Assembly: GCF_963921235.1 (NCBI RefSeq) | Contig: NC_086097.1 | Span: forward strand, 32,366,001-32,430,000 | DNA from: Mobula hypostoma | Lineage: Eukaryota | DNA length: 64,000 nucleotides | Reading direction: 5' to 3' | In this document: piece after piece, positions 7,942 to 59,000 of the stretch | Position numbering within the stretch: the first letter of the stretch is position 1 | Layout: every line of letters starts with the position of its first letter | Program-made: the position numbers and the translations under genes | The notes under the pieces: model-generated | Told to the model about the DNA's origin: nothing | The model's input: the letters and a program-made list of their open reading frames with translations, nothing else | The model's database searches: none

Positions 7942-10900
7942 GTAGGTATCTACATGAATCAGCAATAACCTTCATCAGGGCAAGTGCAGGCCCTGGAACG
8001 TGTCTGAGTCTACACAGAACTAATGCAATCAGTTAGTGGATTGGAATCTAATAGTTACTGTGTGCTGCTTCTTTCCAGCCCGTGTTGTACTCATACTTCA
8101 GGAGTTCCTGCTCATGGAGGGTGCGAATTGGTGAGGCTCCAGCAACTGGCTGCAATTTGAAGAGTGTGTGTGTATGTGTGTGTGTGTGTATACCTCTCTG
8201 TGGGTGTAAATGTGTAAGATGGAGGCACCCAGATGGCTTTTAAAAGAAATTCAGCTCTATGTCTTGTCAATTGCAACAACCCATTAAACTTTGGACTCTG
8301 TTTTTTTTAAAAAAAAAAAGTTTCAGCTGGGTGAGAGGTTGCCTTGAATTGCACCCAGCTCAGTGAGGGAAGCTGGGCAGGTGTGAAACATTGAGTTTTG
8401 TTTAGACATACAACACGGTAACAGGCCCTCCCAGCCCAGTGAGCCTGTGGAGTGTAGGAGGAAACTGTAGCACCTGGAGGAATCCCACACAGTCACGGAG
8501 AAGATACAAACTCCTTGCGGATAGTGGCGGGAATTGAACCGGTGTCACTTGTGCTATGAAGTGTTATGCCACTGTGCCACCTTAAGTTTGTAAAGAGTTG
8601 TTTCTCTGCATCACTCAGCTCTTGCCTTCAAAGGAATCGCGTACGAACAGGTCGCTGTCAACTTGGTGAAAGATGGAGGACAGCAGGTACGTGCCCACCC
8701 CGTTACCCTCTGTTCAAACCATCTTCAAACTAAACTAGGCAAGATGTTGTGATTGCAATACTTGCATTCTTCAGCCATATTACAATTTGAAAATGTTTTC
8801 AATTATAAACCTTGAGCAGATTTGAAGAGTTATAGAACCATAGAAACTATAGCACAGAAACAGGCCTTTTGGCCCTTCTTGGCTGTGCCAAACCATTTTC
8901 TGCCTAGTCCCACTGACCTGCACACAGACCATATCCCTCCATACACCTCCCATCCATGTATCTGTCCAATTTATTCTTAAACGTTAAAAAAGAACCTGCA
9001 TTTACCACCTCGTCTGGCAGCTCATTCCATACTCCCACCACTCTATGTGTGAAGAAGCCCCGCCCTAATGTTCCCTTTAAACTTTTCCCCCCTCACCCTT
9101 AACCCATGTCCTCTGGTTTTTTTTCTCCCCTTCCCTCAGTGGAAAAAACCTGCTTGCATTCACTCTATCTATACCCGTCATAATTTTATATACTATCAAA
9201 TCTCCCCTCATTCTTCTACGCTCCAGGGAATAAAGTCCTAACCTATTCAACCTTTCTCTGTAACTGAGTTTCTCAAGTCCCAGCAACATCCTTGTAAACC
9301 TTCTCTGCACTCTTTCAACCTTATTTATATCCTTCCTGTAATTTGGTGACCAAAACTGAACACAATACTCTAGATTCGGCCTCACCAATGCCTTATACAA
9401 CCTCATCATAACATTCCAGCTCTTATACTCAATACTTCGATTAATAAAGGCCAATGTACCAAAAGCTCTCTTTACAACCCTATCTACCTGTGACGACACT
9501 TTTAGGGAATTTTGTATCTGTATTCCCAGATCCCTCTGTTCTACTGCACTCCTCAGTGCCTTACCATTAACCCTGTATGTTCTACCTTGGTTTGTCCTTC
9601 CAACGTGCAATACCTCACACTTGTCTGCATTAAACTCCATCTGCCATTTTTCAGCCCATTTTTCCAGCTGGTCCAAGTCCCTCTGCAGGCTCTGAAAACC
9701 TTCCTCGCTGTCTACTACACCACCAATCTTTGTATCATCAGCAAATTTGCTGATCCAATTTACCACATTATCATCCAGATCATTGATATAGATGACAAAT
9801 AACAATGGACCCAGCACTGATCCCTGTGGCACACCACTAGTCGCAGGCCTCCACTCTGAGAAGCAATTCTCTACTACCACTCTTTGGCTTCTTCCATTGA
9901 GCCAATGTCTAATCCAATTTACCACCTCTCCATGTATACCTAGCAACTGAATTTTCCTAACTAACCTCCCATGCGGGACCTTGTCAAAGGCCTTACTGAA
10001 GTCCATGTAGACAATATCCACTGCCTTCCCTTCATCCACTTTCCTGGTAACCTCCTCGAAAAACTCCAATAGATTGGTCAAACATGACCTGCCACGCACA
10101 AAGCCATGTTGACTCTCCCTAATAAGTCCCTGTCTATCCAAATGCTTGTAGATTCTGTCTCTTAGTACTCCCTCCAATAACTTACCTACTACCGACATTA
10201 AACTTATACTGGTCCTGTTTATTAAATGCCCTTTATATACAATGAATCCACTATCCAGGACAACAAATTTGATGACAAAGGTAAGTGATAATAAACCTGA
10301 TTCTGATTCCGAATTGCCCTTTGTATTGTTACTTCTGTGAGGGAGGTAGCCATTTTACATACCGCAAGCTCCTACTAAGTCCCCTCCTTTACTCCCTGTG
10401 TACCCATGACTGTGTCACCACCCACAGCTCTAGTCTGCTAATTAAATTTGCCGACTACACTGCATTGATTGGCCTTATTTCAAACAATAATGATGTAGCC
10501 TACAGGGAAGAAGTCATCTCTCGGACACAGTGGTGTCAAGAAAACAACGTCTCCCTCAATGTCGCAAAAACAAAGGAGCTGGTTGTGGATTACAGGAGGA
10601 ATGGAGACGGGCTAACCCCTATTGACATCAATGGATCTGGGGTTAAGAGAGTAAACAGCTTTAAGTTCCTCAGAATCCACATCATCGAAGACCTCACGTG
10701 TACACACCAGCTGTATGGTGTAAAAAGCACAACAGCGCCTCTTTCACCTCAGACCGTTGAGGAAGTTTGGTATGGGCCCCCAAATCCTAAGAACTTTCTA
10801 CAGGGGCACAATTGAGAGCATCCTGACTGGCTGGTATGGGAACTGTACTTGCCTTAATTGCAAGATTCTGCAGAGAGTAGTGTGGACAGCCCAGCGCAGC

Positions 10901-13900
10901 TGTAGTTGTGAACTTCCCATGATTCAGGAAATTTACAAAGACAGTTGTGAAAAAAGGATCATTGGGGACCTGAGTCACCCCAACCACAATCGACTCCAGC
11001 TGCTACCATCCAGGAAATGGTTCTGCAGCATAAAAGCCAGGACCAACAGGCTCCGGGACAGCTTCTTCCACAAGGCCATCAGACTGATTAACTCACGCTG
11101 ATCTGAGTGTATTTCTATGTGACTGTTTATTATAAATTATTATGATTGCACATTTAGAGACGTAATGTAAAGATTGTTACTCATGTATGTGAAGGATATA
11201 AGAAATAAAGTCAATTCAGTTCAATACTACAGCCACATGATCATATGCAGGATGTTAATTGAGTGATAGATATTGCTCAGGACGGGACAGAATCCCTTCT
11301 TTGGGATTGTTGAGTTTCATTTATCCAAACATGCAGAAAGTCATTTGGATTAATAACCAGCACAACCTTAGGAAGTGTTTGGTGACAGGATAGCATGTCC
11401 AAAGTGTTTAGCAGAACAACAGAAGCAGCAGCCACAACAGCTTCAAAATAAACTCTTTTCCTCTCTCCCATCCACCCACTTACCCAGACCCAAGACCAGC
11501 ACTTTACTCCTGATGGACAGATGGGGTGAGGTGCATATTGGTCCTGTTAGGAGCACCATTTTAATCAGTAACTTCCCTTTACAGTACGCTGATTCGTTCA
11601 AGAAGCTTAATCCCATGAAGCAGGTGCCAGCGCTCTCCATCGATGGGATTGTCCTCTCCCAGTCGGTAAGGATGGCTCGTTTCTATTGAGTGGTTTTGTT
11701 ACTCTGTGATCTTGGAATTTGCCCAAGAGAAGGGTTCAAGGCCTGTTTTTGCCCAGATATGTAAATTTTTACTTTATTACTCAGACCTGCCTTGTTATCT
11801 CAAATGGTGAACATAGAGATTATGCGGATGCTGGAAATCTTGAGAAATGCACAAAATGCTGGAGGAACTCAGCAAGTTACGCAGCATTCATGGAAGGGAG
11901 CAAACAGTTGACAATTTAAGCCAAGATCCTTCATCATACAGAATCTAGAATAATAAGCTGGGGGGGTTGTGGAGGGGAAGCGTACAAGCTGGCAGGTGAG
12001 AGGCTAGTAGCTTCTCACGTCAACCCACCCACCTTCAGGTTCAGATTCATTTATTACATGTACATTAAAACATACAAAGAAATATCATTTGCATCAACAA
12101 CCAGCACAGTCCCAAGGATGTGCTGGGGCAAGCTGCAAGTATTGCTATGCTGCCAGCACCAACATAGCCTGCAGCATATGTCTTCCAAAGACCTAACCGA
12201 TATGTCTTTGGAAGGTGGGAGGAAACCCACGTGGTCATGAGGAGGATGTACGAACTCCTTACAGTGGTGGGAATTGAAACCTGATTATTGGCACTACCAT
12301 ACCATGCAAATTGTTTTGTAAATTTTAGGTTTTTCTGTGTGAACGAATCCAGTCTTTAACACACAATTCTGGTTGTTTGTTACTTTCTCTGCTGATGGTA
12401 GATGGCCATAATTCATTACCTGGAAGAGACTAGACCCAATCCACGGCTGTTGCCCGCTGATCCCAAGAAACGTGCCCAAGTCCGCATGATCTCTGATCTC
12501 ATTACCTCTGGGATCCAGCCCCTACAGGTATGGCTTTGGTTCCAGTGCATACCCCACCAGTCTGGTTCCACCTTCGCTTGCCCTGCGAATTCTTTGTGCT
12601 TTCAGTTGTTTGACAGAGAGCAGCAGTTCCTCTCTCTGCCCCTCGCAAGTTTGGTCTGTTACACACATCTGGCTGCACATGTGGAGTATTATTTTACTAT
12701 TTTCACATACCAAGTGTGTTGGATCTAGTGATATTGATCCAGGGGTTCCTCAGAAGTCAAGAATGAGGCATTAAACTTGGTGGTTTCCCATGGTTTAAGT
12801 GTAACAAGAGCAAAGAAAAAAGAAAAATAAGTTAGTCATTTCATACTCTGATTTGAGATAAAACACATTCCATTGATAGAATGAAATCTGTGAAATAGCC
12901 AGATTTAAAGGGGCATGACACCTGCTACAGAAAAACTGAGAAGCTTCTAGAAAATACAGCATCAGCCATATTAGAATCACTGGAAAATTCATTGAACACT
13001 TACCTGCATATAGGTGATTACACAAAAACTATAAGCAAGCATAGGAAAGTTAGTCCACAAGAAAAATAATAATTCAACACCCTAATCTAACTACAGTGAA
13101 AGTTTCGATAGTGTGTTATTCAGACAGATGATTCCATACATCAGTATATCAAGGTGGTAGAAAGTTACTGAAAAAGTGCACAGTAGGTAAACAAAGTTCA
13201 AGGGCCATGATGAGATAGATTGGGTGTTTATCATACAAGTCTGATACGTTTGTCAGAAGCAGTCTTTGAGCCTGATGGCATGTGATTTCTGGCTTCTGTA
13301 TCTTCTGCCTGATTGGAGGGGGAAGAAGAGAAAATAATCAAGGTGGGTGAAGTTGTTGATCATGCTGGCTGCTTTTCTGAGGCAGTGAAAAGTGTGGACG
13401 AAGTTGATTGACAGAGGGCTGGATTGTGTCTGAAGTTCTGAATAACCATGGGAGGGGTTAGTTGGGCTGAGTTGTTTTACTGTCTCTAGAATGAGCATAT
13501 TGTCACAGTGCTCTCTGATCTTTCAGAACCTGGGTGTGCTGCAAAGGGTAGGAGAAGAGAAGAAGCTAGACTGGGCCCGACACTTCATCATCAACGGGCT
13601 GCAGGGTGAGATCAGGCGATCATGTCGTGTTGGATGGCTGCTGTTTAATGTTCTTGTTCAGTTTACCTCACACCTCAGTACCTCCTCACTCCTCCTGATC
13701 AAACCCTTTAGATTCTATTGTTCAACAAGTCCTCAACAGCCTTCTAAACTTACCTGTAGTCCAGTTGCCCCTGTGCTAACTTAGATTTGTATAGTTATAC
13801 AGAATGGCCCAGTAAAAGTCCTTTGGCCCAACTTGTTCAAGCTGATCAAAGTGCAGTCAAATGGAATTCATGGAGATGGATGTTTGACTCCCATTCCTCT

Positions 13901-16900: not shown

Positions 16901-19550
16901 AGGCAGAAGAGCAATTCAGCATGTACTACATGGCCTAAAGGGTGCGTTTATGTGCTGCAATACTCTATTACTCTGAGCTTTACTTGCTCCCTCACCACGT
17001 GCTGGGTGCCGAGGTCCCTGTGGGACATTAATCAGGAGCTATGGTACGACTGATCTAGTAATATGATTTTGTGCTTTCCAGGTGACGATGGCAGACCTGT
17101 GTCTGGTCCCACAGGTGTACAATGCGGTGAGGTACAGTTCTAGTCATCCTTTTGGCAATTATCTCAGTAAATAAATAAATACAAATCAAATCCATACATA
17201 ATGACTTCAGGGTAACAGTTTCCAAACTTCACTCTGTCTGTGGCTCCCCCAGCCCCACTCTCAGCCCTCAGGCTGTTGCTGGAGTAGACAAGATATAACT
17301 TTTCAACCCTCCCAAAACACATTCCTTGCAAATTGTTTTAAAACTCATACCCTAGCTTTCAAGCCATTCAGTGTCTCTACTTCCCAATTTCTGCAGACTC
17401 CTGTGTGTGTGTTTTTTTTAAATCTGAGATATCTATATCCAAATGTTGGCCGTTGATCACCCCAATTTTAAATGCTCTACCTTCCTAAGCACTGTCTCTC
17501 CATTTATGATGCTTCCCTACGTTTACATCTTTGAACAATGATATAGTCAGCTTTGTGTCAGTGTCAGATTTTGTAAACTTCAAGGACTGGAGGGCCGAAA
17601 CTGGCCTGTCCTGGGTGTGATTATGTATGGGGAGGTGCAAGAGGCCTGTTTTGGGATTTTTTTGCTGCTCCTTATGTTTTGCCAAGCATTGTGGGCATGC
17701 TGTTTGGTTTTGGAATGTCTAATGGCACTTGCAGGCTGCCCCCAGCACACCCTTAGGGTTGTGCTGGATGTTAGTGCAAATGACACAATACAGTGGCATG
17801 CAAACGTTTGGGTACCCCGGTCAAAATTTCTGTTACTGTGCATTGCTAAGTAAAAGATGAACTGATTTCCAAAAGGCATGAAGTTAAAGATGACACATTT
17901 TTTTAATATTTTAAGCAAGAAAACTTTATTTCCATCTTTTACAGTTTCAAAATAATAAAAGGAAAAGGGCCCCAAGCAAAAGTTTGGGCACCCTGCATAG
18001 CAGTACTTAATAACACCCCCTCTGGCAAGTATCACAGCTTGTAAGCGCTTTCTGTAGCCAGCTAAGAGTCTTTCAGTTCTTGTTTGGGGGATTTTTGCCC
18101 ATTCTTCCTTGCAAAGGACTTCTAGTGTTGTGAGATTCTTGGACCGTCTTGCATGCACTGCTCTTTTGAGGTCTATCCACAGATTCTCGATGATGTTTAG
18201 GTCGGGGGACTGTGAGGGCCATGGCAAAACCTTCAGCTTGCGCCTCTTGAGGTAGTCCATTGTGGATTTTGAGGTGTGTTTAGATTCATTATCCTGTTGT
18301 AGAAGCCATCCTCTTTTCATCTTTGGCTTTTTTTTTAAACAGATGACATGATGTTTGCTTCCAGAATTTGCTGGTATTTAATCTAATTAATTCTTCTCTC
18401 TACCAGTAAATGTTCCCCGTGCCATTGGCTGCAACACAAGCCCAAAGCATGATCAATCCACCCCTGTGCTTAACAGTTGGAGAGGTGTTCTTTTCATGAA
18501 ATTCTGCACCCTTTTTTCTCCAAACATTCCTTTGCCCATTGCGGCCAAAAAGTTCTATTCAAAAGGTTCAAAGGAACATCTAAACAAGCCTGATGCATTT
18601 TGGAAACAAGTCCTGTGGAATGATGAAGTTAAAATAGAACTTTTTGGCCAAAAGGGTGCAGAATTTCATGAAGAGAACACCTCTCCAACTGTTAAGGACA
18701 GGGGTGGATCGATCATGCTTTGGGCTTGTGTTGTTGCCAGGGGCATGGGGAACATTTACTGGTAGAGGGAAGAATGAATTCAATTAGATACCAGCAAATT
18801 CTGGAAGCAAACATCACACCGTCTGTAAAAAAGCTGAAGATGAAAAGAGGATGGCTTCTACAACAGGATAATGATCCTAAACACACCTCAAAATCCACAA
18901 TGGTCTACCTCAAGAGAAAAAGGTGAAGGTTTTGCCATGGCCTTCACAGTCCCCTGCCCTAAACATTATCAAGAATCTATGGATAGACCTCAAAAGAGCA
19001 GTGCATGCAAGACAGCCCCAGAATCTCACAGAACTTAGAAGCCTTTTGCAAGGAAGAATGGGCGAAAATCCCCCAAACAAGAACTAAAAGACTCTTAGCT
19101 GGCTACAGAAAGCATTTACAAGCTGTGATTCTTGCCAAAGGGGGTGTTAAGTACTGCCATGCAGGGTGCCCAAACTTTTGCTTCAGGCTCTTTTCCTTTT
19201 TTGTTATTTTGTAAAAGGTGAAAATAAAAGTTTTCTTGCTTTAAATATTAAAGAAATGTGTCATCTTTAACTTTATGCCTTTTGGAAATCAGTCCACCTT
19301 TTACTCGCTTAGCTATTCACAGTAACAGAAATTTTGACCGGGGCACCCAAACTTTTGCGTGCCACTGTATGTAACAAATCTGAATCATCTCCCCTATTAT
19401 ACACAAGTACACCTTGTTCTCTCCTACAGGTATAAGGTGGATATGGCTCCATTTCCTACCATTTCAAAGATCAACAAATCCCTCCTGGAACTAGAGCCAT
19501 TCAAAGTCAGTCACCCCTCCTGCCAACCTGACTCTCCTCCAGGACCATGA
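7924..19550 (+). CDS. GSTZ1: Glutathione S-transferase zeta 1 / maleylacetoacetate isomerase, spliced CDS: join(7924-7941,8079-8130,8619-8686,11585-11665,12402-12527,13527-13605,15007-15059,17082-17131,19430-19550), 648 nt, 215 aa
   Basis: Joined exons translate without stops to [30 protein letters not shown]...NPMKQVPAL...IQPLQNL...[36 protein letters not shown]...[12 protein letters not shown]. The zeta-class SSC active-site motif is present. All introns are GT-AG with compatible phases. Confidence 0.97.
8079..8130 (+). CDS. GSTZ1: GSTZ1 exon ([17 protein letters not shown])
   Basis: ttctttccag acceptor, GTGAGG donor, 52 nt, catalytic SSC motif. Confidence 0.97.
8619..8686 (+). CDS. GSTZ1: GSTZ1 exon ([23 protein letters not shown])
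   Basis: cactcag acceptor, GTACGT donor, 68 nt. Confidence 0.97.
8830..10205 (-). mobile_element. CR1 LINE, 5'-truncated, in GSTZ1 intron 3
   Basis: 373-aa RT ORF ([17 protein letters not shown]); CR1-type 3' tail repeats. Confidence 0.92.
10375..11225 (+). mobile_element. Rex1/L2-like LINE 3' fragment
   Basis: [25 protein letters not shown] motifs; aataaa and (ttca)-type tail. Confidence 0.8.
11585..11665 (+). CDS. GSTZ1: GSTZ1 exon ([27 protein letters not shown])
   Basis: ccctttacag acceptor, GTAAGG donor, 81 nt; GST cis-Pro loop NPMKQVP. Confidence 0.97.
12402..12527 (+). CDS. GSTZ1: GSTZ1 exon ([42 protein letters not shown])
   Basis: AG acceptor at 12400-12401, GTATGG donor, 126 nt. 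Confidence 0.97.
13527..13605 (+). CDS. GSTZ1: GSTZ1 exon ([26 protein letters not shown])
   Basis: tctttcag acceptor, GTGAGA donor, 79 nt. Confidence 0.96.
15007..15059 (+). CDS. GSTZ1: GSTZ1 exon ([18 protein letters not shown])
   Basis: poly-T ccag acceptor, GTACGT donor, 53 nt. Confidence 0.96.
17082..17131 (+). CDS. GSTZ1: GSTZ1 exon ([17 protein letters not shown])
   Basis: gctttccag acceptor, GTACAG donor, 50 nt; GST N-capping T-x-A-D motif. Confidence 0.96.
17791..19367. mobile_element. Palindromic (fold-back) Tc1/mariner DD34E-derived element with TA TSD
   Basis: TA|CAGTGGCA...TGCCACTG|TA ends. Both arms encode the transposase C-terminus (QQDN...[12 protein letters not shown]) in opposite orientations. 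Confidence 0.92.
19430..19550 (+). CDS. GSTZ1: GSTZ1 last coding exon ([39 protein letters not shown])
   Basis: ttctctcctacag acceptor, TGA at 19548-19550; HPxxQPD motif of GSTZ. Confidence 0.96.
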
Positions 19551-19829
19551 ATCAAGCAGCAAGGTGAGGGACTGCAAAGTAATTTGTAGCTCTATCAAAC
19601 ACTGCTTAGGGCTTGGAATATTGTGTTCAGTTCTGGTTGCCTTATTATGGGAAGGAGCTGGAAGCTTCAGAGAGGGAGCAGAGGAGATTTACCAGGAAGC
19701 TGCCTGGATTAGAGAGCATGTTTTGGGAGGATAGGTTGAGCAAGCTCGGGCTTTTCTCTTTGCACTGAAGGAAGATGAGAGGTGACTTGATGGAGGTGTA
19801 TAAGATGATAAGATGGATAGACCAAGTCT

Positions 19830-20250
19830 ACACACAAACTGTTGGAAGAACTCAGCAGGTCAGGCAGAATCTATGGAAATAGTTGATGTTTCAGGCCGAG
19901 ACCCCTCTTCAGGACTAGGGGTGGGGTGGGGGAGATGCTAGAATAAAAAAGGTGGGGGCAGGGGAAAGAGGGTAGCTGGAAGGTGATGGGTGAAACCAGG
20001 TGTGGGGAAAAGTCAAAGGCTGGAGAAGAAGGAATCTAATAGGGGAGGAGAAAGGGAAGGATGGGACCCAGTGGGAAGTAATAGGCAGGTAAGAAAAGGT
20101 CAGAGGGGTAATGGGGGAGAATTAGTTTTCCAGAAGCAATCAATATTCATGCCATCAGGTTGCAGGCTACCCAGACAGAATATAAGGTGTTGTTTCTCTA
20201 TCCTGAGGGCAGCTTCGTCTTGGACCGACACGTTGGAATGGGAATTAAAA
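19830..20250 (-). mobile_element. Penelope-like element remnant (GIY-YIG C-terminus plus terminal repeat)
   Basis: LRIEKQHLIFCLGSLQPDGMNID; hammerhead-like motif at 19881-19917. Confidence 0.75.
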
Positions 20251-20344
20251 TATTTGCTTAAAAAGCACAACATTGTGGCTGAAGGGCCTGTACTGTGCAA
20301 ATAGATTTTATGTTAACATTCTCACCTTTTGTCTTTTTCCTTAG

Positions 20345-20490
20345 GGTTTTGGTCACACTTTGAACCATATTGACACCTACAGCTGACAAATTAAGAACTG
20401 CAAATTATACCAATCAGTGGACTATCAACTTCTCTCCATTTTCACTTTTTTTTAATTAAAAGATGAATAAATTTAAAGATTGAAATTACC
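20345..20490 (+). other. GSTZ1: Putative non-coding terminal 3'-UTR exon of GSTZ1 with AATAAA at 20466-20471
   Basis: Donor AAG|GTGAGG at 19563/19564. Strong acceptor ctcaccttttgtctttttccttag ending at 20344. AATAAA about 120 nt further on. The intervening sequence is TE-derived. Confidence 0.55.
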
Positions 20491-21499: not shown

Positions 21500-21862
21500 G
21501 TGAGTGTGTGTGTGTGTGTGTGTGTATGTATGTGTATATATATATATGTATGTATATGTGTGTGTATGTATGTATATGTGTGTGTATGTATGTATATGTG
21601 TGTGTATGTATGTATATGTGTGTGTATATATATGTGTGTATGTATGTATATGTGTGTATGTATGTATATGTGTGTATGTATGTATGTGTGTATGTATGTG
21701 TATGTATATATGTGTATGTATATATATATATATGTATATATGTGTATGTATGTATATATATATGTGTATGTATGTATGTATATGTATGTATGTATATATA
21801 TGTATGTATGTATATATATGTATGTATGTATATATGTATGTATATATATGTATGTATGTATG

Positions 21863-21895
<33 letters not shown>

Positions 21896-22021
21896 GTGTA
21901 TATATATGTATGTATGTATATGTATGTATGTATATGTATATACATGTATGTATGTATACGTGTATGTATATGTATGTATGTATATGTATGTATGTATGTG
22001 TATGTATATATATATATATAT
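21500..22021. repeat. Compound (TG)/(TA)/(TATG) microsatellite, about 520 bp
   Basis: Alternating purine-pyrimidine repeats; source of the spurious YIHT/VCMY ORFs. Confidence 0.98.
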
Positions 22022-22898
22022 CCATATAACAATTACAGCACGGAAACAGGCCATCTCAGCTCTTCTAATCTGTGCCGAACTCTTACTCTCACCTAGTCCC
22101 ACCAACCTGCACTCAGCCCATAACCCTCCATTCCTTTCCTGTCCATATAGTTTTCCAATTTAACTTTAAAAGACAACATCGAACCTGCCTCAACCACTTC
22201 TGCTGGAAGCTCGTTCCACACAGCTACCACTCTGAGTAAAGAAGTTACCCCTAAACTTTTGCCCTTTAACTCTCAATTCATGTCCTCTTGTTTGAATCTC
22301 CCCCACTCTCAATGGAAAAAGCCTGTCCACATTAAATCTATCTACCCCCCTCATAATTTTAAATACCTCTATCAAGTCCCCCCTCAACCTTCTACACTCC
22401 AAAGAATAAAGACCCAATTTGTTCAACCTTTCTCTGTAACTTAGGTGATGAAACCCAGGTAACATTCTAGTAAATCTTCTCTGTACTCTCTCTATTTTGT
22501 TGACATCTTTACTATAATTCAGTGACCAAAACTGTACACAATACTCCAAATTTGGCCTCACCAATGCCTTGTACAATTTCAACATTACATCCCAACTCCT
22601 ATACTCAATGCTCTGATTTATACAGGCCAGCATACCAAAAGCTTTCTTCACCACCCTATCCACATGAGATTCCACCTTCAGGGAACTATGCACCATTATT
22701 CCTAGATCCCTCTGTTCTACTGCATTCTTCAATGCCCTACCATTTATCATGTATGTCCTATTTTGATTAGTCCTACCAAAATGTAGCACCTCACATTTAT
22801 CAGCATTAAACATCTTTCAGCCCACTCTTCTAACTGCCTGAATCTCTCTGCAAGCTTTGAAAACCTACTTCATTATCCACAACTCCACCTATCTTAGT
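22022..22898 (-). mobile_element. CR1 LINE 3' fragment
   Basis: ORF 22190-22813 ([24 protein letters not shown]); near-identical to the copy at 27641-28627. Confidence 0.9.
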
Positions 22899-28900: not shown

Positions 28901-31900
28901 AGGCACACACTCAGTGACTCAGGAACAGCTTCTTCCCCTCTGCCATCCAATTTCTAAATGGACATTGAACCCAAGAACACTACCTCACGACATTTTTTGG
29001 GTTTTTTTGCACTACTTATTTTAACAACTATTTAATAGACATACATATACTTTCAGTTTTTATCCCTCTATATTTATCATGTATTTCATTGTACTTCTGC
29101 TGTAAAGTTAACAAATTTCACGACGCATGCTGGTGATATTAAACCTGATTCTGATCCTTGCCATAAAACTTTGCCAAGCATCACACAGAAGATACTGCAA
29201 AGATGAGGAAGATGGTCTTGTGGTCGGATGAGACAAGCATTGATCTTTTTGGCCTCAACACTAAGTGGTACATGTGGCATAAATCTAATACTACACATCA
29301 GCCAGATAACACCATCCCTACTGTAAAGGAAGGTGGAGGAACATCATGCTGTGGCGATGCTTTTCAGTGGCAGGGACTGGAAATCTAACCAGGACTGAGG
29401 GGAAGATGAACACTATTAAATACAGAAAGATCCTGGATAACAACCTGCTAGTGTTTACCAGAAAACTTAAAACTGGGCGAGAAGTTCATCTTTCAGCAGG
29501 ACAGCAACCAAAAGCACACTGCCAGAGCAACCATGGAGTGGCTTCAAATGAAGAAAATTGATGTTGAAGTGGCCCAGTCAGAATCCTGACCTTAACCCAA
29601 TCGAACACCACTGACAAGACCTCAAGGTTGCTGTCCGCCGCCGCTCCCAAACTAACCTGGCACAACTTGAGAAATTCTGCAAGGAGGAATGGCCAAATCT
29701 TGCTCCGTCATGTTGTGCAAAGCTAATAGAGATTTATCCAAAAAGACTACTCTGGTTGTAGTAGCTGTGAGAGGTGATTCAGCTGAGGAAAGGGGGATGA
29801 ATACTTTTGAACTGCTGACATTTCATTTTCTGAATTTTTAGTTTTTCCATGTTTTACAATTTTTTGGGGCTCAACTGTGAAAAAAGAAGCATGTGATTCA
29901 CAAATAAAAATTTTAGTTATATTAATCAAAATCCCTTGTTGTAATACTCCTGGATGGGGGCTAAATATTTTTTCAAGGCACTGTGCTACACAGTGCAGAT
30001 AATGACAGCTATTTAGATGACAAGAGATTTTTTTTTGATGGATAGGGGCCAAGTGCTAGAAGAAGAAAGACATTTGTGACATGTACATAGAGACATACAG
30101 TGAAATACGCCGTTTGCATCAACTGTCTGGGACAGCCTGCAAGTGTCGCTATGATTCTGGTGCCAACATACCATGCCCACAACTTACTAATTCTAACTCA
30201 TGTCTTAGGAATGTGGGAGGAAACCGGAGCACCCAGAGGAAACCCACACAGTCACAGGGAGAACACACAAACAGCAGAAATCAAACCAATGTTGTAGAGT
30301 ACTACACTAACCTCGATACTACATCTTGGTTTGCATGACACTTATGGGCCAAAGGGGTTTTTGATGCTGTACAATTCTATAACAAGGAGCAGGCGTAGCT
30401 CCTCGGTCCCTCAAACCTGCTACACCCTTTGATAAGATCATGGCTGATCTGACCTCTCAAGTGTACATAGTGAAAAAAGCACGGAAATCAGTTCAGTGAA
30501 GGTTTCTGAGACTTATACCAGGAGTTGGTGGGTTGTCTGCCTGAGGAACGTTTGGAGAGGCCAGATTAGTGCTTATTGGAGTTTAGGTGATCAACAGAAA
30601 TCATAGCATTATGAAGCACAACAGCACAGAAACAGACCCTTTGGCCCATCTAATCCTGTCTAGTCCCATCTACAAGCATCTGAACCATGGGTCTCCATAC
30701 CTCTCCCATCAGTGTATTTATCCAAACTTCTCTCAATGCAAACACAAGAAATTCTGCAGATGCTGGAACTCCAAAGCAACACACAAAATGTTGGAGGAAC
30801 TCAGCAAGTCAGGCAGCATCTAAGGAAATGAAGAAACAGTCGATGTTTCAGGCCGAGACCCTTTTTCAGGACTGAAAAGGAAGGGAGAAGACGTCAGAAT
30901 AAAAAGGTGGGGTGAGGGGGAGAAAGGATAGCTGGGTGGGTAGGAAAGATAAAGGGCTGGAGAGGAAGGGATCTGATAGGAGAGGAGAGTGGACTACAGG
31001 AGAAAGGGAAGGATGAGGGGCATCAGAGGGAGGTGATAGTCAGATGAGAAGAGGTAAAAAATCAGTGGGGGACAGATGCAGAGGGGACAGGGAGGGAAAT
31101 ATTTTTTTTTAAACCAGAAGGAGAAATCCACATTCATGCTATCAGGTTGGAGGCTACCTAGATGGAATACAAGGTGATGCTCCTCCACCCCCAGGGTGGT
31201 CTCATCGTGATACAAGAGGAGGCCATGGACCAGCATGTTGGAATGGGAATCAGAATTAAAATATTTGGCCACTTTAGGCAGATGGAGAGGAGGTTAGCAA
31301 CGAAGCAGTCCTCCAATTCATGATAGCCCTTACCAAATGTAGAGGATGCCGCATTGGGAGTGTCAGACACAACAGACGGCCCCAGCAGATTCACAGGTGG
31401 AGTGTTGCCTCACCTGGAAGGACTGTTCGGGGCCATTGAACGGAGTTGTGGGAGGAGGTGAATGGGCAGGTGTAGCACATTGGCTGCTTGCAGGGACAAG
31501 TGCCAGGAGGGACAAATGTCGAATGTTTGTCAACGCTCTTAAATGTTGCATCCAACATTTCCACTGACAGCTCGTTCCACACTCGCACCACCCACTGAAT
31601 GAGGAAGCTCACCCTCGGGTTGCCCTTAAAATTTCACCTTTCACCCTTAACCTGTGACTTCCAGTCTTGGTGTCACCCATCCTCAGTGGAAAAAGCCTGC
31701 TTGCATTTACCCTGTCTGTACCCTTCCTCATTTTATATACAGTACCTCTATTGATTGAAATACTGAGGGGTCAACAGACTGGATGTACTGGATAGAAGGG
31801 GTTTCCTCCTTGCAGAGAACCCAGAACTAGGTGTCACTGTATAAACAGAAGGCAAGGCCAGATAAGACAAAGCAAGGTGACATTTTCTGAGGATTTTGAC

Positions 31901-56000: not shown

Positions 56001-59000
56001 CTTGTAACCCACTTTTTGCAGGCAATTGCTCCAGACCGTCAAAGAATCCATGGTAGCTGAGGGATTGCAGGGCTTTTGCTCCATCACCAAAGGGCCCAGT
56101 GTTGATTCTGCGTCACAATCTTACAGCAATTACAGATTGATGTAGGAGTGGAGACTGGCCCTGCTCCTCTCCCTCATCCACCTCCCTCCCCTACCCCAGA
56201 CTTCCCCAGCATCCAAAACCTTAGGATCCTGCTGATATTCTCAGCAACATCTCCTTCCAGGGCTCCTGAGGGAGAGAAGAGCAGAGGATCACAGTCCTCT
56301 CTGATACTGAATTGAGTTGAATTGACTATTTCTTACATACTTCACACGAGTAAAAATCTTTACGTTACGTCTCTGTCTAAATGAGCAATGTGCAATTTAT
56401 AGTAATTTGTAGTAAATAGTGTATACAACAGAACAGTCAATACAAGATAGAAATACAATTGTATCAGCATGAATTAATCAGTCTGATGGCCTGGTGGAAG
56501 AAACTGTCCCGGAGCCTGTTGATTCTGGCTTAAATGCTGTGGTACTGTTTCCTGGATGGTAGCAGCTGGAACAATTTGTGGTTGGGGTGACTCAGGTCCC
56601 CAATGATCATTTGGGACCTTTTTACACAGCTGTCTTTGTAAATGTCCTGAAACATTGGAAGTTCACAACAACAGATGCGCTGGGCTGTCTGTACCACTCT
56701 GCAGAATCCTGCAGTTAAGGGAGGTACAGTTCCCATACCAGGCAGGATGCAGCCAGTCAGGATGCTCTCAACTGTGCCCCTGTAGAAAGTTCTTAGGATT
56801 TGGGGGCCCATACCAAACTTCCTCAACCGCCTGAGGTGAAAGAGGCACTGTTCTGCTTTTTTCACCACACAGCTGGTATGTACAGACCACGTGAAGTCCT
56901 TGGTAATGTGGATGCTGAGGAACTTGAAGCTGTTTACCCTCTCAACCCCAGATCCATTGGTGTCAATAGGGGTTAGTCTGTCTCCATTCCTCCTGTAGTC
57001 CACAACCAGCTCCTTTGTTTTTGCGACATTGAGGGAGGGGTTATTTTCTCAACACCACTGTGTCAGGGTGATGACTTCTCTGAAGGCTGCCTCATTATTA
57101 TTTGAGACAAGGCCAATCAATCTAGTATTGTCAGCAAATTTAATTAGCAGATTGGAGTAGATAGCGACACGGTCTTGAGTAGAGAGTAAAGGAGAGGGTT
57201 TAGGACACAGCCCTGAGGGGCACCTGTGTTGAGGGTCAGAGGGGCAGAGACAAGGGAGCCCACTCTTACCACTTGCTGGCGAACTGACAGGAAGTTCAGG
57301 ATCCAGCTGTACAAGGCAGGGTGAAGGCAGAGATCTCTGAAATGCTTGCCAAGCCTGGAGGGAATTATGGTGCTGATTGCTGAACTGTAGTCAAAGAACA
57401 GCATTCTTACATAAGCATCCTTCTTCTCCAGATGCGTAAGGATGGTGTGTTGAGCTGTGGCTATTGCATCACCTGTTGATTGGTTGTGTCGGTAGGCAAA
57501 TGGTAGGCGGTCCAGTTTGGGTGGTAGCATGCTGCAGATTTAGTCCTTGACCAGCGTCTCAAAGCATTTGCTTATTATTGCGGTGACTGTGACAGGACGC
57601 CAGTCATTCAGACATGTTACCTTGGTCTTTTTAGGTACAGGACAATGATGGATGTTTTGAAGCAGACTATAAGCTATAGGAGCAAAAGTGGGCCATTCAG
57701 CCCATCAAGTCTGCTCTGCCGTTCTATCATGGGCTGATTCAATTCTTCCAGTCATCCCCACTCCCTTGCTTTCTCCCCATACCCTTTGATGCCCTGGCTA
57801 ATCAAGAACCTATCTATCTCTGCCTTAAATGCACCCAATGACTTGGCCTCCACAGCCGCTCGTGGCAACAAATTCCACAGATTTACCACCCCCTGACTAA
57901 AGTAATTTTTCTGCATCTCAGTTCTAAATGGACGTCCTTCAATCTTGAAGTCGTGCCGTCTTGTCCTAGACTCCCCTACTATGAGAAATAACTTTACCAT
58001 GTCTAATCTGTTCAGGCCTTTTAACTTTTGGAATGTTTTAATGAGATCCCCCCTCATTCTCCTGAACTCCAGGGAATACAGCCCAAGAGCTGCCAGACAC
58101 TCCTCAGAAGGCAGGAGGGCATTCTACACTGGGAGAGGGAGAGATTAAAAATGTCTGTAAACTCACCTGCTAGTTGTGTCACACACATCCTGAGTACCCA
58201 GTCCAGCAGCCTTGTCACTGCCCACTCGTTGGAAACACCTACATACTTCAGCCTCAGAGATGACCAAGGTGCCAGTTGCTTTGGTGGGATCCTCGGGCGG
58301 GGCTTAGCGTTGGCGACATCAAACCAAGCGTAAAAAAGACTTAGCTCATCTGGGGGAGAGGCAGCGGTCGGCAGCACCACTGCACTTAGCTTCGGTCTGC
58401 GATGGTGTGCAGACCTTGCCATAAGCTGTGTGTGTTGTTGGTGGAGAGTTGTCTGAACCTTGTCCCTGTATTGTTGTTTGCATGTTACCTCAGTGCCAAA
58501 AGCTAATGTGCTGTCTCAGAATCTAAACATCTCACATAATCAAACAAGTGGAGGAACAGAGCAATCTTGGAGTCCACTTCTATTGATACCTCAAAGTTTC
58601 CGTGCAAGTTGATAGGGTGGTTAAAGTGGTGTATGGTGCATTGCCCTTCATCAGTCAGGGGAATGAGTTCAGGAGCCACGTGGTAACGTTGCAGTTCTAT
58701 AAAACTCTGGATTGACCACACTTGGAATATTGTATCCAGTTCTGGTCACCAGATTAAAAGAATGTGGAAGCTTTAGAGGGTACAGAGGAGATTTACTCAG
58801 GTGTAGCTTGGATTCCACAACATGTCTTGTGAGGAAAGGTTGAGCAAGTGAGGACTTTTGTTTTTGGAGCAAAGGAGGATGAGAGGCGGCTCAAGAGAGG
58901 TGTACAAGATGATAAGAAGCATAGAGTGGAAGCCAACACCTTTTTCCCAGGGTGGAAATTACTTATATGAAGGGGGTGACTGGAGCAAAGTGTAGGGGGT

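Follow-up and report, generated by a model that had tools for sequence, protein, structure and literature searches.

A fold-back Tc1 derivative, no longer active, next to the last coding exon of GSTZ1 in a ray

A stretch of about 1.5 kb in an intron of GSTZ1 is a near-palindrome, and it lies 62 nt ahead of a splice acceptor. What is this structure, how did it arise, and does it act on its host gene or on the transposons to which it is related? Within the window (the whole stretch of 64,000 nucleotides that was analysed), it takes the form of a 1577-bp element at 17791-19367 with a TA dinucleotide on either side, and CAGTGGCA opens both of its ends. We read it as a dead fold-back Tc1 derivative that probably comes from a small non-autonomous subfamily, and we put the probability of this reading at roughly two in three. 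The features to which the text refers are the following.

17082..17131, plus strand: coding exon of GSTZ1 that precedes the host intron (AG/GT borders; translation; contig 24 of run X5 links it to 19430).
17132..19429, plus strand: host intron, next-to-last, 2298 nt long, of which 719 nt remain once the element and one TA are taken off (contig 24 of run X5).
17789..17790, no strand: left TA target-site duplication (sequence).
17791..17998 (inner limit approximate), minus strand: left end, an inverted 3' long terminal repeat of IR/DR type, about 210 nt (outer repeat about 17799-17818, inner about 17976-17997).
18003..18559, minus strand: inverted transposase residues 157-340 with D244 and E279 (spacing 34), without D153, with two frameshifts (tblastn with the transposase P0008, 78-90% identity, three pieces; Pfam DDE_3, E 1.6e-11).
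18559..18560, no strand: fold-back junction, from the antisense arm to sense transposase at about codon 132 (tblastn; loose ends of normal copies at 18559 and 18569; contig 10 of run X11, with contig 9 borderline).
18560..18632, plus strand: hairpin loop, 73 nt, codons about 132-156 including D153 (self-BLAST, tblastn).
18633..19154, plus strand: transposase residues 157-340 of the right arm, interrupted by several frameshifts and lacking 27 nt at 18649/18650 (tblastn; Pfam DDE_3, E 3.2e-06, which does not reach the curated cut-off).
19160..19367 (inner limit approximate), plus strand: right 3' long terminal repeat, IR/DR (joints from 19336-19339 to 19162-19164 reflect two direct repeats).
19368..19369, no strand: right TA target-site duplication (contig 8 of run X1 covers 19329-19600 with zero differences).
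19430..19563, plus strand: final GSTZ1 coding exon, with its stop codon at 19548-19550 (protein match; contig 24 of run X5).
19564..20344, plus strand: 3' UTR intron, 781 nt, GT-AG, the true last intron seen (3' loose end of contig 24 of run X5 at 20346).

The original prediction described a fold-back with arms at 17791-18559 and 18633-19367 bounded by TA, and these coordinates proved right. When the left arm is aligned with the reverse complement of the right arm, 665 columns are identical and 62 are mismatched (665/727 = 91.5%), with nine gap events, the largest being the 27-nt deletion in the right arm; self-BLAST gives the pair an E value of 0.0. The arms account for about 95% of the element length. 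About 210 nt per arm would be symmetric in any normal element, and the remaining 560 nt constitute the fold-back. Among the 30 longest of 174 minus-strand self-hits in the window, this is the only long inverted pair with adjacent arms, the low-complexity tract 21709-22028 aside. The predicted fold of 17900-19290 is a single hairpin of -1001.7 kcal/mol, a value given without a shuffle control at that length, and the long stem foreseen in GSTZ1 pre-mRNA follows from the sequence. A weak match to an Rfam microRNA precursor (45 bits against a cut-off of 100) was read as a generic hairpin.

Between the arms, a spacer of about 70 nt had been described. Its length holds (73 nt), but it is not a mere spacer, as it consists of transposase codons about 132-156 and holds D153, the first catalytic D. 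When P0008 was used as a tblastn query, residues 157-340 were placed in the left arm (minus strand) and residues 132-337 in the right part (plus strand); D153 is thus present only in the latter. Residues 1-131 are absent from the element, in agreement with the earlier statement that the N-terminal half is missing. With frameshifts in both transposase arms, and with neither an intact frame nor the N-terminal DNA-binding domain, the element is not autonomous. Microhomology at the junction amounts to 1-3 nt depending on the alignment, and is hence uninformative. Each end carries two direct repeats, one outer and one inner, separated by about 180 nt, and this layout of paired direct repeats in long ends is the one called IR/DR.

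The family to which the arms belong can be stated more closely. Among the 120 matches listed, out of 128, to a 107-residue open piece of the left arm, nearly all have a Tc1-type DDE domain. The closest among the matches listed is P0008, an intact 340-residue transposase that is 91% identical. Its catalytic residues are D153, D244 and E279, with a D-E spacing of 34 (DD34E), and its residues 114-340 align with SB100X, the Sleeping Beauty transposase (PDB 5CR4), at E 3e-80. The TA duplication with terminal inverted repeats, the DDE domain with a spacing of 34, and the inner and outer direct repeats are together those of a DD34E Tc1 element of the IR/DR type. The element resembles Sleeping Beauty in being DD34E with long ends that contain two direct repeats; however, it belongs to a different Tc1 family, and no transposase could be made from the present copy. 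Summed read depth over the element relative to a unique exon was about 32,000x in organism A, 23,000x in organism B and 145,000x in organism C (medians over 22 of 30 bins, which are not copy numbers). The family is plainly very abundant. Tc1/mariner content is also given as high, 3.28% and 2.30%, for skates and rays in the accessible text of a survey (PMC12361510).

The same Tc1 lineage is found in bony fishes and a frog (P0008, P0009 and P0011, with 80-82% identity to the left arm), and cluster members are named from Monopterus, Cirrhinus, Cyprinus and Staurois. Set against a ray host, this distribution hints at a possible horizontal transfer. A second Tc1 remnant, from another family, lies at about 29170-29985; it is 5'-truncated, in a single orientation, and 31-45% identical to P0008.

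A palindrome within so abundant a family raises the possibility that collapsed high-copy Tc1 reads were joined into a false palindrome during assembly. Four runs, all in the form of contigs, were aligned to 18440-19600, which takes in the central junction, a complete arm and the exon. Among the 32 pieces listed (there are 65,805 more), one firm and one borderline piece cross the junction, both from organism C (run X11). The firm one, contig 10, covers 18470-18637 at 88% identity (20 differences, 2 gaps), with 90 nt to the left and 78 nt to the right of the junction. Contig 9 covers 18440-18594 at 91% (13 differences, 10 gaps) and is borderline by the 31-letter rule. A linear Tc1 copy was rejected as the source of contig 10, since the loop is unlike its own reverse complement (identical at 18/73 positions ungapped and 42/85 gapped) and thus not self-complementary. 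Linear copies diverge from the window sequence at 18559 and 18569, where they would be expected to. None of the pieces listed for organism A crosses the central junction; in X1, its best DNA run and possibly the source sample, the contig over the right end and the exon has no differences, and the depth at 18651, beside the 27-nt deletion of the right arm, is 14, with 13.6 for the unique flank. The contig of run X6 among those listed ends at 19383.

Misassembly is unlikely because the junction is crossed by a contig of another species and because the X1 contig and depth fit the assembly. The depth of the Tc1 family, four to five orders of magnitude above the flank, would allow reads to be collapsed, and none of the pieces listed spans the whole stretch, the aligned part of which began inside the left arm. 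However, 62 mismatches and nine gaps between the arms are unlike a chimeric read, X1 has the right end in identical form, single-copy depth is found at the 27-nt deletion, and the junction is present in another species at 88% identity. We regard an assembly artefact as hardly credible. That a normal Tc1 might have been misassembled had been named as the way in which the original prediction could fail; as far as the short-read contigs show, this is not borne out. The same central junction in another species suggests, though it does not prove, a small non-autonomous subfamily.

Other joints in these reads were also considered. In organism C, an arm-to-loop joint from 18471 to 18561, with 18 letters between, has a depth of 506 against 4-11 on the exon, although its short side has only 30 letters and false joints are possible at that length. 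This joint may stem from another fold-back variant of organism C, one of greater abundance. The last of its 18 letters are a mirror image of the bases that immediately precede the break, a pattern like that of templated end-joining. Run X11 also contains a joint 18562/19298, on the opposite strand and at a depth of 126.5, that links a piece of the terminal repeat to the start of the loop and may represent an internally deleted subfamily. The opposite-strand joints 18447/18763, 18497/18701 and 18512/18688 were discounted: they are probably deletions in linear copies that had been divided between the two arms. Joint 18559/18632 is a linear copy.

How the two arms came into being can be approached from the changes that they share. 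Of the 40 difference rows displayed (32 further rows exist), 29 were compared, 7 being left out because they lie beyond the right arm and 4 because they are of low depth beside gaps. At 25 of these 29 right-arm sites, the left arm has the letter of the reads, so that the changes are private to the right arm (with the family split at four of the 25). The two arms agree with one another against the reads at four sites: 19084, 19345, the CpG site 18700 and 19108. At 19084 and 19345 the other letter makes up 95-97% of the family depth, while at 19108 the family itself is split, and this site was left out of the shared changes. Moreover, two single-base deletions are common to both arms: one near codon 207, when compared with the loose-end consensuses of the family and the frame of P0008, and the other in the stop codon, when compared with the same consensuses and P0008. 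A C-to-T change near 19149 was rejected as a shared change, as the triplet is missing from the right arm.

The two identical 1-base deletions would be best explained if one already broken template was copied onto itself. To judge by their sequences, which have diverged by a K2P distance of 0.091, the arms decayed separately after the duplication. The duplication is placed early because the shared changes are few beside the 62 differences between the arms, and transposase was probably still being supplied at that time. Alternatively, the arms may owe these common changes to a defective subfamily. Another route, proposed for Rpmar49 and Rpmar17 of Rhodnius prolixus (PMC4678618), starts from two sibling copies, nearby and in opposite orientation, from which one deletion took both 5' halves. 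It leads to the same final layout in the available description of those elements, and the present family is dense enough for neighbouring copies, but it requires that both parents had the same pair of 1-base deletions and the same pair of uncommon substitutions. We consider this route very unlikely here. The defects common to both arms favour self-copying of a single broken element over two-copy deletion, and this offers a clue to a process for which the cited studies give either an elusive origin or a two-copy deletion.

In the history that we propose, the starting point would be one Tc1 copy that already carried a frameshift. Its 5' half would have given way to its own 3' half, copied in reverse orientation, possibly through fold-back or template-switch repair such as gap repair after excision, to give a product with two 3'-type ends. 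The family transposase, while the family was active, might then have moved this product as one unit into a TA in the GSTZ1 intron, where the arms would have decayed independently. The intron would be removed normally, and the hairpin in the pre-mRNA would be a by-product, perhaps edited, rather than a maintained function. Elements with two like ends are able to transpose, because constructs with two right ends were active for both transposons described in the part of PMC4505599 that is available: such a Mos1 was 26 times more active than the natural pair, and such a Mboumar-9 was 3 times less active. The element had been described as having two intact ends and as mobilisable in trans. The terminal 8 nt are indeed intact, but between the two ends the outer binding repeats disagree at three positions. 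The element probably did move in trans formerly, given that another species has this junction. Inverted Alu pairs with a 52-bp spacer are described as not often stalling eukaryotic forks (PMC7999016, in part), and the 73-nt loop may have helped the element to persist.

From the TA ends, transposition of the whole unit cannot be told apart from a rearrangement in place, in which a normal Tc1 that had entered this intron in an ancestor would have broken in its 5' half, copied its own 3' half to the left end and never moved again, the organism C junction being an orthologue and the locus neutral since. Such a one-off event would account for the shared defects and the shared change 19345/17813 with both TA ends kept, and the 88% identity of contig 10 would fit an old orthologue. 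Spread as a subfamily is likely yet unproven because contig 10 could be an orthologous copy in organism C. However, two distinct contigs of organism C lie over the junction region and their gaps differ, a related joint occurs at about 100 times single-copy depth, and the few shared as compared with private changes point to an early duplication, when transposase was probably present. We therefore think a rearrangement in place unlikely, though it deserves serious consideration, and prefer an element that moved as a member of a small fold-back subfamily.

This architecture is already known from insects. Rpmar17 and Rpmar49 are described, in the available text, as rearranged mariner lineages with a 3' part in place of the 5' part (PMC4678618). 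Our element is like them in that an inverted 3' part with transposase homology replaces the 5' part, which gives very long inverted repeats and a non-autonomous element. Secondary deletions around the centre are also common to them, and the longest Rpmar17 copy exceeds 1700 bp. The insect elements differ in being DD34D mariners, most of them shorter than 1 kb, of which 13 and 227 copies were counted, whereas ours is a vertebrate DD34E Tc1 with IR/DR ends and a length of 1577 bp. Dromar7, 11, 28 and 36 are among the rearranged mariner MITEs of Drosophila, of which seven sublineages are of mirror type with an origin called elusive in the part of PMC4161770 consulted. There, too, one end region is swapped for the inverted other, so that long terminal repeats result, and spread occurred in trans; in contrast to our element, it is the 5' part that replaces the 3' part, and those elements are under 1 kb. 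At 1577 bp as against under 1000 bp in that Drosophila study, ours is too long for a MITE in the strict sense. The examined parts of the Bari paper (PMC4877112) contain no fold-back case, and none of the titles listed in the literature searches reports a fold-back Tc1 in a vertebrate. Our findings extend a known decay route of mariners to a vertebrate IR/DR Tc1.

The original prediction located the element 62 nt ahead of the acceptor at 19430, next to the last coding exon of GSTZ1, and this was confirmed: the 39 residues encoded by that exon match the C-terminus of glutathione transferase zeta (E 1e-10). The intron had been called the last one, which it is not, as the 781-nt intron in the 3' UTR follows it, starting 13 nt past the stop codon. 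By the usual 50-nt rule, a UTR intron this near the stop codon should escape nonsense-mediated decay. Run X5 comes from organism A and another study, and is presumed (a guess) to be RNA. Its contig 24 (585 nt, depth 1399.5) matches 19428-19564 exactly, and its 5' loose end is the upstream exon, so that the exons are joined exactly across the element. It is the one contig listed at that exon, and contigs lose rare forms. X5 gives no cover at 19376-19414, which alone proves nothing. In the main GSTZ1 form, and with X5 presumed to be RNA, the host intron is removed exactly, and the suggested effect on splicing is not seen. A near-palindrome of 1.5 kb is thus tolerated 62 nt from a splice acceptor.

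It had also been suggested that the locus resembles Mu killer of maize. As a natural killer locus, it would yield a long hairpin when GSTZ1 is transcribed, and the hairpin would be cut into small RNAs that repress the Tc1 family now or did so in the past. Mu killer itself carries a duplication of about 1.3 kb from the mudrA end, and crosses showed that it silences MuDR, according to the available text of PMC3440606. The layout proposed there, with read-through from a flanking gene over an inverted partial transposase duplication bearing two copies of the same end, is also found here inside a host transcription unit (PMC3440606). In our element, known here from sequence, it is the 3' half that is doubled, the position is a spliced intron, and the arms have diverged by 9%. 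Plants, moreover, have RNA-directed DNA methylation. Twelve perfectly paired runs of at least 21 nt, the longest of 38, could feed such a process, and the host exon is well covered in X5. Against it, the element sits in an intron that is spliced out, and the arms show neither a pairing bias nor homogenisation. If the RNA stem had been selected, a bias towards changes that retain pairing would be expected; the arm-to-arm transitions, read as sense RNA, comprise 22 G-U and 21 A-C (p = 1.0), and thus give no sign of preservation. As the arms decayed independently and this bias is absent, the idea of a maintained silencer is not supported. Nor are A>G differences in excess, with 11 A>G and 8 T>C in X5 as against 10 and 8 in the DNA run X1, a weak test in which family contigs are pooled. 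We find a killer role highly doubtful, and a Mu-killer-like function is unsupported.

Some ADAR editing of a long RNA stem is likely on general grounds. Editing of the hairpin, as an ordinary by-product, is plausible by analogy, and base-paired Tc1 ends are edited in worms according to the accessible part of one study (PMC12779559). A more far-reaching scenario, which we consider improbable, is that a fold-back subfamily, formed early in the Tc1 burst of these fishes, invaded transcribed introns in trans, and that dsRNA from many such hairpins helped to shut the parent family down. If true, this would be a mobile, self-spreading animal counterpart of Mu killer. The locus would gain much greater importance only on proof that such hairpins give rise to small RNAs which silence the Tc1 family.

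Two other repeats of the window may be recorded. A long TA/CA-rich simple repeat at about 21500-22030 is partly self-complementary. A pair of LINE-like remnants, at 10375-11225 and 56311-57203, lies in opposite orientation 45 kb apart, and its members are 80% identical over about 900 nt.
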